The notes under the pieces are model-generated. The model was not told the origin of the DNA. It saw only the letters and a list, made by a program, of their open reading frames with translations, and did not search any database. From Bacilli bacterium (GTDB lineage Bacteria; Bacillota_I; Bacilli_A; RFN20; CAG-826): a stretch of 64,000 nucleotides of DNA. Below, piece after piece: positions 5,731 through 62,494 of the stretch; the stretch's first letter is position 1, and each line of letters begins with the position of its first letter. Made by a program: the position numbers and the translations under genes. Where the stretch lies: contig DAOPYW010000001.1 in the NCBI GenBank assembly GCA_035353055.1, forward strand, positions 21,687 to 85,686, read 5' to 3'.

Positions 5731-5890
5731 CACTCGTAAAATATAGCACTTCGCATAATTTCCGTTATGTTAACTAGAATTAAAATATTGTTAGATATAT
5801 TCAGTATTTATTTTTTGCGAAATTCAAAATGTTCGCGGTTTAGTAACAGCTAATAAGTAAGTTTTCCACAGATAAGTTGTAGAAAATATC

Positions 5891-5907
5891 TACTAATTAT
5901 CTACTAA
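5891..5907 (-). repeat. Two TTAGTAG repeats (reverse orientation) at 11-bp spacing just 3' of the MazF-like gene stop
   Basis: Plus-strand TACTAA occurs at 5891 and 5902 (ATCTACTAATTATCTACTAA). Confidence 0.5.
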
Positions 5908-6602: not shown

Positions 6603-7802
6603 TTAGTCTTTTAGCAATTCGCTAATAGGAGCACCAATTAAGTCGTCTGGCTTGCTGAGCTTGAAGTTTTTAAGAACAGTCGCTCCGATATCAGCGAATG
6701 AACTCCTCTCTTCAAGATAGCGGCCATTCTTAAACGATTTAGAACACATGAGGAGTGGGACTTTTTCGCGAGTGTGATCAGTGCCAGTCCAAGTCGGATC
6801 GTTTCCGTGATCAGCGGTGACAATCAATAAATCATCATCTCGTAAGGCTTCAATGAGCTCTTTTAATCTGCGATCAAATCTCTCGAGCGCTTTCGCGTAT
6901 CCTGGGACATCGCGGCGGTGGCCATACTCAGAATCGAATTCGACAAGATTGACGAAGCACAAGCCGGTGAAATCAAAATTCTTAGCTTCGCTAATGGTCT
7001 TATCCATTCCATCTTCATTGCTGATGGTTTTTTGTGTTTTAACCACCCCGTATTGATCGAAGATATCGCCAATTTTTCCGACGCAGGTGGTCATGAAACC
7101 ACCATCTTGCAAAACGTTCATAACTGTCGGTTTGTTTGGCTTCAATGCTAAATCGTGACGATTAGGTGTTCGCTTAAAGTTTGAAGCGCAAGTGCCGATG
7201 AATGGGCGAGCGATAATGCGTCCAACCATCCATTCAGGCTTCATGCATAATTCACGAGCAATCTCGCAGCAGCGATATAGCTCTTTGACGCCAGTGACTT
7301 CTTCGTGAGCAGCGATTTGGAGAACGCTGTCAGCGGAGGTGTAGACGATGAGAGAATCATCTCTCATTTGCTGCTCGCCAAGCTCTTTTAAGATTTCGGT
7401 TCCTGAAGCGGAATAGTTGCCGATCACTTTGTGGCCAGTTCGCTTTTCTAATTCGGCAATCAGCTCTAGAGGGAAGCCAGTATCCGTGAAGGTCTGAAAT
7501 GGTTTGATGGTGTAAATGCCCATCATTTCCCAGTGGCCAGTCATCGTGTCTTTGCCATTGCTCTCTTCTCGAGCTCTCGCGACATAGGATTGAGGATGAG
7601 CCACCTTAGTTGTTCCCACGATTGGAGCGAGGTCTCCAATTCCTAAAGCGTTCATCGTTGGGATGTGTAATCCATTGGCTCCCTCAGAGATGTGAACGAT
7701 GGTATTGCTGCCAACATCGCCGTATTTATCAGCGTCAGGTTCAGCTCCGATGCCGACAGAGTCGGCAACGATTAAAAATATCCTTTTGAATTTATACGCC
7801 AT
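6603..7802 (-). CDS. deoB: Phosphopentomutase
   Basis: MAYKFKRIFLIVADSVGIG is the DeoB N-terminus. The start was moved to the ATG preceded by AAAGGAG; the track start at 7829 would include the RBS. Confidence 0.85.
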   Translation of the reverse strand: MAYKFKRIFLIVADSVGIGAEPDADKYGDVGSNTIVHISEGANGLHIPTMNALGIGDLAPIVGTTKVAHPQSYVARAREESNGKDTMTGHWEMMGIYTIKPFQTFTDTGFPLELIAELEKRTGHKVIGNYSASGTEILKELGEQQMRDDSLIVYTSADSVLQIAAHEEVTGVKELYRCCEIARELCMKPEWMVGRIIARPFIGTCASNFKRTPNRHDLALKPNKPTVMNVLQDGGFMTTCVGKIGDIFDQYGVVKTQKTISNEDGMDKTISEAKNFDFTGLCFVNLVEFDSEYGHRRDVPGYAKALERFDRRLKELIEALRDDDLLIVTADHGNDPTWTGTDHTREKVPLLMCSKSFKNGRYLEERSSFADIGATVLKNFKLSKPDDLIGAPISELLKD

Positions 7803-35089: not shown

Positions 35090-35235
35090 AATGTCCCTCC
35101 TTATCAATTCACTAATGACTCGCTATTAAGGTATCTTAATAGATTTTAAAACCTTTTCTATGCGGTTGTAGCTTGTGAGGCGACAACGTTTGTAATATAA
35201 CATATGTTATAAAGGGGTGTCAATTTACTTTTCAC
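35090..35235 (-). promoter_or_regulatory. rplU promoter plus a structured 5' leader of about 100 nt (possible L21-leader-type autoregulatory element)
   Basis: On the minus strand TTGACA-17nt-TTATAT is followed by an imperfect hairpin (GTTGT/ACAAC arms with offset pairing) ahead of the RBS. Firmicutes rplU operons commonly carry an r-protein leader. Confidence 0.35.
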
Positions 35236-52699: not shown

Positions 52700-52966
52700 T
52701 AATAGCCAAAGACAGTGCGAAAGAGAAAGATATCACGAATCTGATAGAGAGTTTGCGGTTGGTGGAAGCAAATAGAGAACGATATGCAATATACACTTTC
52801 AAGTCGAATCGCTGAACTGACAGTAGGCGACTCCGGAAATCCTCCGTGACAGGGATAAGAGTTATATGACTCGATGAGTGATGGCAAACGCCATAAGATG
52901 GGTGGTACCGCGGAAATCATACGATCTTCGTCCCATAACTAGGGGGAGAAGATCGCTTTTTATTTT
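52700..52966 (+). promoter_or_regulatory. T-box riboswitch leader upstream of a tryptophanase/tyrosine phenol-lyase-family gene
   Basis: The T-box motif AAGATGGGTGGTACCGCGG sits at 52894-52912. The terminator ACGATCTTC…GAAGATCG plus CTTTTTATTTT is at 52921-52966. TTGACA at 52671 serves as a -35. Confidence 0.75.
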
Positions 52967-59049: not shown

Positions 59050-59063
59050 GGCATTTACCCCTC

Positions 59064-59083
59064 ATCAATACCTAGATATTGAT
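59064..59083. promoter_or_regulatory. Inverted repeat ATCAATA-CCTAGA-TATTGAT 15-34 nt upstream of the ABC ATPase start; candidate operator
   Basis: The 7-bp arms are perfectly complementary and sit next to the RBS. Confidence 0.35.
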
Positions 59084-59201
59084 AACGTGGGTATTCTAAA
59101 AGAATAGGCTGAATGATTCAACCTTTATTTAGTTACGTGAAGGTGGTTGTGTAACAAAGGGAAAGAAATTAACTTAAGACTTTGGCTATCTGCCCAATAT
59201 C

Positions 59202-59549
59202 CTAGATGGCAAAAAACAGTATTATTTTAATGGCTGAAACAAGGAAGCAAATCGCAAAGGTGCCCGTCATAACATAATTAGTGACTTTTATTTTCTTAGT
59301 GCTAGATTTCGCAAATTTAAAAGTGAAAAGAAACCCGATAATCGAAACATGCAACGAAATGCCTATTGCACACAGCAATGAAATACGAAGAAAAGCATCT
59401 CCGAAAACATCACCAATATTATTATCTGGAGTGTTGTTTTTGAGGTCAATAACGCTGATGGATAATAGAAAGATTGCAAAAGCAAAGGTAATCGCGAGCA
59501 GGACACCCATGACAATTGTCCCGACTAATCGCGATTTTTTTTGAACCAT
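59202..59549 (-). CDS. Small polytopic membrane protein of unknown function
   Basis: Three to four predicted TM helices are present. It lies upstream of the ABC-2 transporter genes. The start is uncertain (ATG at 59549 or TTG at 59582). Confidence 0.45.
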   Translation of the reverse strand: MVQKKSRLVGTIVMGVLLAITFAFAIFLLSISVIDLKNNTPDNNIGDVFGDAFLRISLLCAIGISLHVSIIGFLFTFKFAKSSTKKIKVTNYVMTGTFAICFLVSAIKIILFFAI

Positions 59550-59580: not shown

Positions 59581-59605
59581 AAAAAGCGGCTGCTTTCAAC
59601 CGCTT
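59581..59605 (-). terminator. Rho-independent terminator of the HTH-M18 gene
   Basis: The minus-strand hairpin AAGCGG-TTGAAAGCAG-CCGCTT is followed by TTTTTG. Confidence 0.6.
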
Positions 59606-59627: not shown

Positions 59628-61076
59628 TTACTTGATTACCGTTTGAAAATCGTCATTGCTGATGTTGGTTTCATAGAAGCATTTGACCAACTTAATCATT
59701 TTTTCGATGTCGTATTTGCCGACGGTTTCGATGGCTGAGTGCATTGCCAACTGAGCGAGGCCGATGTCGCAAGTGTTAATTCCCAATTGGGCGCTTGTCA
59801 CTAGTCCAATTGTTGACCCACATCGGATATCGCTGTTGTTGTAGTATTCTTGAATAACAATATCGTTCTTTTTAGCGATGGACTTCACAACGGCACTGCT
59901 ATAGCCATCTGTGGCGTAGTTAGGGTGATGTTTGATGATTACTCCCTCGTTGAGCTTAACCATCTCAGAGGGGTCACTTTTCTCGGGATGAGCAGGATGA
60001 ACTGCATGACCATTATCAATCGATAGGGCGAATCCATTAGCGATGGCCTGATAATAATCATCTTTAGTTTTATTTAAAGCAGTATTGATTTTCTCTAGAA
60101 CATTAGCGAGGAAGATTGATTCCGCTCCCTGCTTGGATAAGCTGCCGATCTCTTCATTGTCAGTCGCGTAAAGCATGGATATTCCTTGCTCTCGGCAAGA
60201 AATAATCGCTTCGATAATCGCGTATAAACTAGTGAGATTGTCGATGCGAGGTGAGACAAGTAGTTCAGAGTCTAAGCCAGAATATGTTGGCTTGACAAAA
60301 GGAACGCAGTATAGATCACCATCCACGATTTTCTCATTAGGTAGCAAGGATAAATATAAGTTGTCGCATTTTCCGTATATTGGCAACATATCGCTTTGAT
60401 TCTTAAGTTCCATGCCCTCATTAACGGTTGGATTATGATGAATACATAAGCTAGGAATGTTCACATTGAAATCGCTGGATATCAGCCTTTGTTCGATACC
60501 ACTTTCGGTTTCGATAAAGACTCTCCCACCTATCTTTAGTGGGATATCTAGAAATGAATAATTAATTAAACTACCATAGCGTTCGACATTGATTCTTTTT
60601 CCTTCGGGAGAATCAATGACACTATTGCCCTTAATCTTTAAGGATGGGGAATCAGTGTGGCAAGAGGCAATATGAAAAGCATAGCGAGATAAATCACCGA
60701 CTTTAAAAGCGATGAGAGCGCTGCTGTTCTTTGTGACAAAATACTTGCCCCCTTCTTTGAGCTTCCACTCCTCGTGTTCTTTCAGTTCCACAAATCCTTC
60801 TTTGGCTAAAAGCACACATGCATTATGAGTTGCATGATAGGAAGTTAATGACTTATGTAAGAACTCAGTAATGGAATCATTTTCTAGTTCTGATTTAAAA
60901 AGAAATTGATCAGGGTCAATCATCAAGATCTTCGCTAACTTATCAATGATTTTGCTGGGAATCGAAGAATCATCTCTTTCATAATTTCCATAGGCTTGTT
61001 GAGAAATACCAAGTTTATTTGCTATTTCGGCTTGTGTTAATCCGCATTTCTTTCTAAAAAATTGTAATTTTGACAT
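59628..61076 (-). CDS. XRE-family HTH domain fused to an M18-family aminopeptidase
   Basis: The N-terminus LTQAEIANKLGISQQAYGNYERD is a Cro/C1-type HTH. The remainder carries the M18 signature ASCHTDSPSLKIKG and DNGHAVHP…CGSTIG. Confidence 0.75.
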   Translation of the reverse strand: MSKLQFFRKKCGLTQAEIANKLGISQQAYGNYERDDSSIPSKIIDKLAKILMIDPDQFLFKSELENDSITEFLHKSLTSYHATHNACVLLAKEGFVELKEHEEWKLKEGGKYFVTKNSSALIAFKVGDLSRYAFHIASCHTDSPSLKIKGNSVIDSPEGKRINVERYGSLINYSFLDIPLKIGGRVFIETESGIEQRLISSDFNVNIPSLCIHHNPTVNEGMELKNQSDMLPIYGKCDNLYLSLLPNEKIVDGDLYCVPFVKPTYSGLDSELLVSPRIDNLTSLYAIIEAIISCREQGISMLYATDNEEIGSLSKQGAESIFLANVLEKINTALNKTKDDYYQAIANGFALSIDNGHAVHPAHPEKSDPSEMVKLNEGVIIKHHPNYATDGYSSAVVKSIAKKNDIVIQEYYNNSDIRCGSTIGLVTSAQLGINTCDIGLAQLAMHSAIETVGKYDIEKMIKLVKCFYETNISNDDFQTVIK

Positions 61077-61091
61077 ATAAACACTCTTTTC

Positions 61092-61146
61092 TACAATTAT
61101 TGTAATATAAAAGCAAAAACAATAATAGCAAACAATTATAATTGCT
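61092..61146. promoter_or_regulatory. Two AT-rich palindromes (TACAATTATTGTA at 61092-61104; CAATTATAATTG at 61133-61144) upstream of the HTH-M18 gene; candidate auto-operators
   Basis: Both are perfectly self-complementary, and XRE regulators typically bind such dyads. They lie within about 70 nt of the start codon. Confidence 0.35.
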
Positions 61147-61210: not shown

Positions 61211-62494
61211 TTATGGTTTATTAACAATTGCTTTGGGTTTCTTTTTTTCAATAATGATTTCGCCAGCTTTAGTTAAAGCAATCTTGGTGATGATTGGACC
61301 AACTAGTTCATAGACGAGCGTTGCTGCTAAAGCAACGGCCAAAATCATCGCTCCATATTCAGGATTTGTTGGGAACCCTTGAGATGCTAGAGTGGCCATG
61401 CCAATGGCAACACCCGCTTGCGGAAATAATGCCCAACCAAGGTATTTTTGAACCTTTGGTTCAGCTTTGGTGATTTTGCCGCCAAGGAATGAACCAAAAA
61501 ACTTTCCTACCATTCGGAAAACGATGTAGACACCAGCGACAATTAATATTAATCCGCCTTTGAAAAAGACACTTAAATCAAGGGATGCACCACTAATGAC
61601 AAAGAACAGCATAAATAATGGCGGTGTCCATCGCTCCACTCCTTCGAGTATCTGCTCGCCATCAGCGCGAGCATTGACGAGTATCGTGCCAATCATCATG
61701 CAGGCTAGTAAAGATGATATAGTAGCTTCATAGCTGCCAACTTTAATGCGAGCAAGCATCACAACTAGCAATACAGAAACAATCATCAGTGAAAGGCGGT
61801 TCGCTCGAGAATGGAACCAGCGCATAGCTAGAGTCAAAAGAAAACCAACGGCAGTCCCTATGCCTAATGAGATGACAATCTCAGCTAATGGGATGAGCAA
61901 AACTTCGATGATTGTAATCGCTCTTCCGCTCGCCAAAGCTTCGGCGACGGGAAAGCAAATGGCAAAACTCATTAAAGCAACAGCGTCATCTAAAGCAACA
62001 ACTGGCAATAGCGTATTAGTCACTGGACCTTTGGCTCGATATTGACGGACGACCATCAAAGTGGCCGCCGGAGCTGTGGCTGTAGCGATTGCGCCTAGAG
62101 TGATCACTACTGGCAATGGAATACCTGGGACAAAAAAGTAAACTAATAAAAGCGCAATTAAGGTAATGAAAAGTGCTCCTAATCCTTCAAATATGGTGAT
62201 AATAATAATGCTTTTGCCAGCTGACTTTAGCGTTTCTTTTTTAAAGCTGGTGCCAATTGAGAAGGCAATGAACCCAAGAGCAATTTCAGTAATAATACCA
62301 AACGATTTAACATCATCTGCATCCAAGAAGAAATCGGGCAGCCATTTTCCTAATAGAAATGGTCCGATTAAGACACCAGCTATTAGAAAGCCAGTGACAT
62401 TAGGCAGACCTAATGGCTTCATCAAACGAGTAGCCAGTAGGCCAAAAAACATAGCCAAAATAAGCGGTAATAAGATGCCAAGTTGTTGGAGCAT
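61211..62494 (-). CDS. Cation:proton antiporter (CPA-family, KefB/NhaP-like)
   Basis: It has 12-13 TM helices and the motif GLPNVTGFLIAGVLIGP. It is 427 aa. Confidence 0.75.
   Translation of the reverse strand: MLQQLGILLPLILAMFFGLLATRLMKPLGLPNVTGFLIAGVLIGPFLLGKWLPDFFLDADDVKSFGIITEIALGFIAFSIGTSFKKETLKSAGKSIIIITIFEGLGALFITLIALLLVYFFVPGIPLPVVITLGAIATATAPAATLMVVRQYRAKGPVTNTLLPVVALDDAVALMSFAICFPVAEALASGRAITIIEVLLIPLAEIVISLGIGTAVGFLLTLAMRWFHSRANRLSLMIVSVLLVVMLARIKVGSYEATISSLLACMMIGTILVNARADGEQILEGVERWTPPLFMLFFVISGASLDLSVFFKGGLILIVAGVYIVFRMVGKFFGSFLGGKITKAEPKVQKYLGWALFPQAGVAIGMATLASQGFPTNPEYGAMILAVALAATLVYELVGPIITKIALTKAGEIIIEKKKPKAIVNKP

Follow-up and report, generated by a model that had tools for sequence, protein, structure and literature searches.

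An XRE-type helix-turn-helix fused to an M18 aminopeptidase, and a conserved element at its promoter, suggest an enzyme that may regulate its own gene

Introduction

Can a self-compartmentalizing aminopeptidase also serve as a transcription factor? The question is raised by a gene on a 64,000-nucleotide stretch of contig DAOPYW010000001.1 (assembly GCA_035353055.1, a Bacilli bacterium), hereafter the window, in which an open reading frame (ORF) at positions 59628–61076 of the minus strand encodes a 482-residue protein that joins an N-terminal XRE/Cro-C1 helix-turn-helix (HTH) domain to an M18 aminopeptidase. A first interpretation made from the letters of this DNA, here called the sequence-only reading, proposed that the peptidase doubles as a transcription factor. 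We find that a conserved fusion, a predicted HTH fold and a promoter motif speak for this proposal at the level of sequence, whereas two of its parts, a link to an adjacent ABC-2 exporter and a distal operator, did not survive comparison. Overall, we favor a bifunctional enzyme-regulator that binds DNA and represses its own promoter, to which we assign a probability of roughly 0.55.

Trigger enzymes, as such proteins are called, offer a direct view of feedback from metabolism to gene expression. To our knowledge, PepA is the only well-studied DNA-binding aminopeptidase; it lacks a domain dedicated to DNA binding, and the logic by which it regulates has been difficult to dissect. The HTH–M18 fusion would provide a simple, testable system for asking whether a self-compartmentalized protease can act as a transcription factor and how it does so, and also a case for how a 12-mer scaffold presents HTHs to DNA.

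One polypeptide with two domains

Both halves of the protein are recognized by curated profiles. Pfam HTH_3 (PF01381) matches residues 7–57 with 45.1 bits (cutoff 23), and Peptidase_M18 (PF02127) matches residues 72–468 with 332.8 bits (cutoff 24) and spans profile positions 1–432 of 432. The NCBIfam equivalog for "M18 family aminopeptidase" (NF002759), whose cutoff is 356 bits, also matches, at 423 bits. A monomer model built with AlphaFold2 (AF2) on 39 fused homologues reached a mean predicted local distance difference test score (pLDDT) of 84.9 and a predicted template-modeling score (pTM) of 0.86. The nearest solved relative is the Pseudomonas aeruginosa M18 enzyme PA3247/PaAP (3wt4/2ijz), with an E value of 8e-64 and ~31% identity. 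Because the alignment with PaAP starts only at residue 64, residues 1–60 represent an additional N-terminal module. As judged from sequence and model, then, a single polypeptide unites an enzyme with a predicted DNA-binding domain.

With respect to the enzyme, M18 family members are characterized by H.D.E.D.H ligands of a binuclear metal site, a catalytic Glu and a His supplied by the swapped loop of the neighboring subunit, and they form tetrahedral dodecamers from six dimers (PMC3472314). The fusion protein carries the metal and catalytic motifs as H140 (HTDSP, residues 140–144), D279 (RIDNL), E308/E309 (DNEEIGS), D354 (SIDNGH) and H446 (AMHS), which align with HTDSP, RLDNL, DHEEVGS, SADNAH and AMHS of PaAP, while the swapped-loop residues H213/H214 sit in an IHHN loop. 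Conservation of each of these metal, catalytic and swapped-loop residues across the 39 fused homologues is complete or no lower than 90%. The AF2 model matches the M18 fold, with its proteolytic and dimerization domains, and in a Foldseek comparison its peptidase part aligned with 4njr_A at a template-modeling score of 0.86, a root-mean-square deviation of 2.7 Å and an E value of 2e-38. With this full set of active-site residues, the peptidase looks catalytically competent. In Pfam and NCBIfam the fusion protein gave no match to M17 or to Peptidase_M78, its peptidase hits being M18 plus a weak M42, and by profile content it is not a protein of the M17, ImmA/IrrE or cI/LexA type.

The N-terminal domain was likewise predicted to fold as expected from the sequence-only reading. 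In the AF2 model it forms five helices (residues 2–10, 15–22, 26–32, 41–51 and 56–59) in an XRE arrangement, with pLDDT values of 74–90 over the block. Its sequence matches in the PDB were all DNA-binding repressors, among them ICEBs1 ImmR (7t8i, E 1e-4), the 434 repressor (1per, E 5e-3), P22 C2, SinR and HipB. Across the 39 fused homologues, the invariant HTH residues are R8, Q15, Q26, Q27, Y29, Y32 and E33. In the 434 repressor, structural work has established that Q28 and Q29 read the ACAA half-site. When the fused HTH was aligned to the 434 N-terminal domain, a comparison that serves only as a lead, the two were 33% identical, and R8, Q15, Q26, Q27 and E33 fell opposite R10, Q17, Q28, Q29 and E35 of 434. 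The fused domain thus appears to keep the residues that align with the DNA contacts of the phage protein.

Further relatives of the domain occur as standalone proteins, the nearest of which were recovered from metagenomes through a shared helix of the form [IV][ST]QQ[AT]YxxYE. In one such locus (L115), the HTH gene is followed by a weak ImmA-like M78 ORF that scores below cutoff and by a phage-type integrase, surroundings that, going by gene content, are those of an immunity-type module of an integrative and conjugative element (ICE) or prophage. The earlier allusion to ImmA/IrrE-type regulators is therefore apt for these closest standalone HTH relatives, which resemble ImmR-type repressors, but not for the fusion protein with its lack of an M78 domain. 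The standalone subfamily may be the origin of the fusion's HTH.

A small and genuine family

An artifactual origin has to be considered for any unusual fusion, namely that an error of assembly or gene calling joined an XRE gene to an M18 gene and that the palindromes upstream are chance products of AT-rich DNA. Homologues sought among 5.8 billion proteins, with matches from JGI, ENA, Logan and NCBI, argue strongly against the first part. An identical fusion protein is encoded on two independent JGI contigs (L091 and L092), and the survey that the sequence-only reading called for returned ~50 protein clusters with the HTH + M18 architecture, at 52–100% identity, from varied metagenomes and metagenome-assembled genomes (MAGs), in each case as one continuous frame in which residues to either side of the junction are conserved. 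For the fusion, the artifact explanation is effectively refuted, and as a whole it strikes us as extremely improbable. The sequence comparisons support a fusion that is genuine, conserved and under selection.

The named fused homologues come from MAGs of Bacilli and Clostridia. A neighbor-joining tree built from the peptidase domain places the fused proteins in two clades within a background of unfused M18 enzymes. The closest unfused orthologues, from Christensenella (55–57% identity), begin exactly at the M18 N-terminus. No adjacent HTH gene lies beside them (L002, L003), and a split pair of HTH gene and M18 gene was accordingly rejected for these two loci.

A second HTH_3–M18 fusion was found in a Ruminococcus MAG (L051, 7983–8945), with a longer linker. 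As its recognition helix (GNKSLSRYE) differs and its peptidase is only 35% identical, this fusion probably arose independently. Its ORF ends after 320 residues although the tblastn match runs on, which suggests a frameshift or an assembly error. Among the 80 loci listed from a scan of genome contigs were one full-length family member (L001) and this one distant fusion. A search of representative sequences with residues 1–125 was dominated by multi-HTH repeat proteins, with ~10 matches spanning the HTH and the M18 N-terminus, and is not usable for counting the size of the family. One 706-residue homologue (P0022), 73% identical over the peptidase, has a DDE transposase domain (PF01609) where the HTH would be; an insertion sequence, or a gene call that runs through one, has probably removed the DNA-binding domain.

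The architecture is already present in databases but unremarked, in a small family of uncultured Firmicutes. Public records name the fused proteins only "M18 family aminopeptidase" or "aspartyl aminopeptidase," an annotation gap in which the peptidase is recorded and the regulatory domain passes without comment. Within the literature covered, searches brought up no description of an HTH–M18 fusion.

A conserved element beside the −10 box

Having established the architecture, we turn to where the protein might act. The two perfect palindromes that the sequence-only reading had reported upstream of the gene are indeed present, and their role as operators proved defensible for the proximal one only. 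This proximal palindrome, TACAATTATTGTA (61092–61104), lies between or over the −10 region and the ribosome-binding site (RBS) and overlaps the core promoter; two alternative −10 hexamers, TACAAT and AATAAT, fall within it. Its conserved TTGTA half occupies 61092–61096 and starts 20 nucleotides (nt) before the ATG.

In terms of frequency alone, the chance component of the artifact explanation has some merit for the palindromes. Perfect palindromes of 12–13 nt are not rare: 60 of them (arms of at least 6 nt, gap of at most 1 nt) occur in the window, giving ~0.13 expected in the 134-nt intergenic region. Two in 134 nt is marginally unusual (Poisson probability about 0.007), which is not decisive in AT-rich DNA. 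The proximal palindrome is lifted above chance only by comparative data. In two loci whose fusion proteins share 75% amino acid identity with that of the window (L094 and L103), the last 30 nt ahead of the ATG hardly differ from those of the window and the palindrome block is kept, although the sequence further upstream is unrelated. The distal palindrome fared differently, as it is absent from orthologues, including the 75%-identical L094. It was rejected as a conserved operator, appears lineage-specific, and a function for it is doubtful.

The comparison was extended to 20 non-redundant fused loci over the region from −60 to −6 relative to the start codon. TTGTA is found in 14 of these against 3.6 expected (a count reached by 0 of 2000 shuffles), and TACAA in 10 of the 20 against 1.4 expected. 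The element begins at exactly −20 in 8 fused loci, a −10-like hexamer always ends 0–2 nt before it in orthologues, and most loci with no exact TTGTA near −20 show, on reading of the aligned upstream regions, a variant with one mismatch (TTATAG, ATGTAA). Control sequences indicate that the element is peculiar to this gene. Among 96 ORFs of at least 120 codons that are preceded by a Shine-Dalgarno (SD) sequence on the same contigs, TTGTA occurs at −24 to −12 in 6, all of them HTH–M18 genes, and only 4 of 31 low-GC promoters of unfused M18 genes contain it (Fisher 5e-5). Likewise, TTGTA comes within 3 nt after 27 of the 1773 TATAAT hexamers present across all loci retrieved, and these 27 include 8 fused-gene promoters and at least 3 promoters of standalone homologous HTH genes. 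Inverted repeats of the form TACAA-N1–9-TTGTA are scarce in 207 kb of fused loci, and 4 of the 6 found lie at fused-gene promoters. TTGTA is therefore a gene-specific, conserved cis-element beside the −10 box.

The element also behaves as part of the promoter and not of the message. In loci of the Clostridia clade, TTGTA stays beside the −10 box though the ATG lies 45–60 nt downstream, and because it is tied to the −10 box and not to the ATG, it is best regarded as a promoter-linked DNA element. The RNA supports the same assignment, since the promoter region shows no unusual fold; a role of the palindrome at the RNA level was rejected, the 5′ region folding no better than shuffled sequence (z −0.8). 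The leaders of the Clostridia clade (L001, ~5870–5900; L104, ~2960–2990) contain, between TTGTA and the RBS, a conserved hairpin GCCGATTTTAC...(A)ATCGGC with no U-run after it.

A similar signal is seen at the promoters of the standalone HTH genes. TTGTA lies upstream of 13 of the 25 closest such genes (4.4 expected), and in three loci (L111, L115 and L121) the promoter carries TTGTACAAT-ttata-ATTGTA. Palindromes TTGTACAAT are present at standalone HTH promoters in L111, L115, L121, L122 and L159, the first three with a second ATTGTA.

A model for autoregulation and its weaknesses

These observations can be arranged into a scheme in which the C-terminal 410 residues are predicted to form a competent M18 aminopeptidase of the TET-type, self-compartmentalizing kind, and the N-terminal 60 residues an XRE/Cro-C1 HTH akin to those of ImmR and the 434 repressor, carried on a short, variable linker. 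If solved M18 structures are a guide, dimers would build a dodecamer with the N-termini outside. An N-terminal extension does lie on the outer surface of the dodecamer in the case of the propeptide of yeast Ape1 (PMC4931565). The peptidase oligomer would replace the oligomerization that a standalone XRE repressor draws from its own C-terminal domain, and the HTHs would bind TTGTA/TACAA half-sites over the −10/+1 region of the gene's own promoter (here TACAAT-A-ATTGTA at 61092–61104), such that the enzyme represses its own synthesis in a loop of negative autoregulation. In this scheme the binding to DNA, the repression and the state of oligomerization are inferences, as would be any influence of peptides, of amino acids such as Asp/Glu or of the assembly state on how the protein binds.

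Several points weigh against this scheme. DNA binding is deduced from the sequence, and the AF2 model, being that of a monomer, is silent on how the HTHs are arranged on an oligomer. Only the TTGTA half-site is consistently placed, while the partner TACAA is found at a spacing of N1 (the window and L094), N2 (L087), N5 (L085 and, imperfectly, L086), N15 or N19, or is absent. With the N1 spacing of the window, the ACAA and TTGT cores are separated by ~7 bp and do not present the same face, unlike the arrangement of a 434-type dimer. TACAAT also reads as a −10-like hexamer, and part of the palindrome may be plain promoter sequence. Moreover, selection of the motif followed inspection of the sequences, and the loci are related by descent, both of which make the P-values given above optimistic. 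Finally, a search of the 64-kb window for a regulon with TACAATWATTGTA, allowing up to 2 mismatches, returned 3 matches against 1.4 expected and nothing beyond the gene's own promoter.

Some of these points are accommodated if the HTH no longer binds DNA and persists as a structural or assembly appendage, such as a surface tag, an oligomerization or gating module or a site for partner binding, with TTGTA being a core-promoter or transcription-start feature. In favor of this are the inconsistent half-site spacing, the position of TTGTA, which always abuts the −10 hexamer at the place for a discriminator or start-site element, the resemblance of TACAAT to a −10 box, and the existence of non-catalytic N-terminal extensions among M18 enzymes, the Ape1 propeptide being the example. 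What such an appendage leaves unexplained is that the residues aligned with 434 DNA contacts are invariant across ~40 diverged homologues while the remainder of the HTH domain varies, that standalone homologous HTH genes, which have no M18 domain, show enrichment of this motif at their promoters, and that the motif is absent from the other scored SD-preceded ORFs of the same contigs and from most unfused M18 promoters. On this evidence we judge a loss of DNA binding to be unlikely, and autoregulation by the bifunctional protein remains the preferred explanation.

A more ambitious reading would have a TET-type cage aminopeptidase display twelve phage-repressor-type HTHs on its surface and couple peptide or acidic-amino-acid status, or its own assembly, to transcription. 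We put this forward tentatively and as something to be doubted. If it were true, the protein would define a new class of trigger enzyme in which a self-compartmentalizing protease is itself the transcription factor, and the occurrence of at least two probably independent HTH–M18 fusions would point to selection for the combination.

Relationship to known enzymes and repressors

The closest enzymatic counterparts are the M18 enzymes themselves (PA3247/PaAP; 2ijz, 3wt4, 4njq/4njr; NF002759), with which the fusion protein shares the full-length domain and all active-site residues. Characterized members start at the equivalent of fusion residue 64–69, and the solved or named homologues are without a DNA-binding domain.

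The sequence-only reading compared the protein with PepA, and this holds as an analogy of outcome but not as homology. PepA of Escherichia coli and Vibrio cholerae is likewise an oligomeric metallo-aminopeptidase that acts on DNA as a regulator and has been called a trigger enzyme. It is, however, an M17 hexamer with no HTH, and DNA binds on the surface of the hexamer, whereas the fusion is an M18 protein with a dedicated XRE domain. A closer parallel in layout is offered by BirA, PutA and NadR, which combine an N-terminal DNA-binding domain with an active enzyme and exert auto- or pathway regulation from operators that overlap promoters. The fusion differs from these in that its enzyme is an exopeptidase and not a ligase, dehydrogenase or transferase, its DNA-binding domain is of the XRE type, and it is expected to form a 12-mer cage.

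The HTH itself is most similar to those of ImmR-type ICE and phage immunity systems and of the 434 and P22 repressors, with the same Q-Q start of the recognition helix. Repressors of the cI type consist of an HTH and an S24 autopeptidase. In contrast to these and to the ImmR systems, the C-terminal partner in the fusion is an M18 exopeptidase, and neither a self-cleaving S24 domain nor a separate M78 ImmA protein.

Gene features and neighboring genes

The features of the gene are collected in Table 1.

Table 1. Coordinates of the HTH–M18 gene and its flanking signals in the window
Feature	Position	Strand	Basis
Distal palindrome CAATTATAATTG, directly upstream of the −35	61133–61144		Perfect palindrome; missing in L094, L095 and further orthologues
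Best sigma-70-like promoter match: −35 TTGCTA (61131–61126), 16-nt spacer, −10 TATATT (61109–61104)	61104–61131	−	Consensus scan, 9/12
Proximal palindrome TACAAT-A-ATTGTA (TACAATAATTGTA), candidate autoregulatory operator	61092–61104	−	Perfect palindrome; block kept in L094/L103
Ribosome-binding site GAAAAGAG, 7 nt before the ATG	61084–61091	−	Read from sequence
Coding sequence of the HTH–M18 fusion protein	59628–61076	−	ORF; Pfam HTH_3 + Peptidase_M18; NCBIfam NF002759 above cutoff
XRE/Cro-C1 HTH domain, residues 1–60; recognition helix GISQQAYGNYE	60897–61076	−	HTH_3 E 1e-11; AF2 helices
HTH–peptidase linker, residues 61–68; length and sequence vary across the family	60873–60896	−	N-terminal alignment of fused homologues
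M18 aminopeptidase domain, residues 72–468	59673–60863	−	PaAP alignment and Foldseek match
Intrinsic terminator after the gene; 9-bp stem at 59584–59605, 4-nt loop, then UUUUU	59581–59605	−	RNA fold dG −16.3 kcal/mol, z −3.5

The terminator that had been proposed downstream of the gene is well formed, with a 9-bp stem and a U-run. Together with the promoter-like site it brackets the gene, in line with the suggestion of a monocistronic unit. That suggestion has to be relaxed at the 3′ side, where a gene for a small membrane protein follows. Its probable start is the ATG at 59549 and not the TTG at 59582, some 30 nt past the terminator, and its RBS context is GAAAAGAG-N7-ATG as in the HTH–M18 gene. 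As there is no room for a promoter between the terminator and this gene, some read-through is likely, and the probable source of its transcription is either such read-through or a promoter located within the end of the peptidase coding sequence.

The small membrane protein and the adjacent ABC-2 exporter, or a wider peptide-utilization regulon, have also to be weighed as the main targets of a peptide- or amino-acid-sensing transcription factor in which occupancy of the peptidase controls DNA binding, which would make the protein a true trigger enzyme. The intact active site makes substrate binding plausible, PepA, BirA and PutA are precedents for enzyme-regulators, and downstream of the gene both the window and its two closest relatives (L081/L082 and L083) carry the ABC-2 operon. 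This synteny is only local, as the neighbors are entirely different in six more distant fused loci, with no ABC transporter in any of them, and the exporter was ruled out as a conserved partner on these neighborhoods.

The dyad ATCAATA-N6-TATTGAT that the sequence-only reading noted before the ABC gene is present at 59064–59083, and it lies downstream of the gene's own promoter-like site (TTGAAT-17-TAGAAT for the ABC-2 ATPase gene; 59050–59125, minus strand). It forms the upper stem of a leader hairpin (dG −15.4 kcal/mol, z −3.0) that engages the Shine-Dalgarno sequence GAGGGG through pairing with ACCC. Both dyad and leader accompany the ABC gene in related contigs, as ATCAATATATTGAT in L081 (5640–5683) and at about 9500–9540 in L083, and the dyad contains no TTGTA and differs in sequence from the promoter motif. 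Because it is conserved with the ABC gene and because its hairpin pairs with the RBS, the dyad belongs to the ABC leader, and nothing links it to the HTH–M18 protein. The leader hairpin may serve translational control of the exporter or be an operator for another factor. With no further palindrome match beyond chance in the 64 kb, regulation aimed chiefly at other genes is in our view improbable.

On the other side of the fusion gene in the window lies a Na+/H+ exchanger gene (61211–62494), which had no upstream Rfam match at the gathering threshold. It was rejected as conserved synteny, since the exchangers of the window and of L083 are only 35% identical and sit on opposite sides of the HTH–M18 gene, which makes them paralogues. 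In L083, a cyclic di-AMP riboswitch (RF00379, 72.9 bits; 7545–7666) precedes the exchanger gene between the HTH–M18 gene and the ABC-2 operon.

No mobile-element context was found in the window. Elsewhere in it are a T-box leader (RF00230, 101.5 bits) at 52706–52938 on the plus strand and a ribosomal protein L21 leader (RF00559, 44.5 bits) at 35105–35177 on the minus strand, both of which are consistent with a Bacilli/Firmicutes origin.

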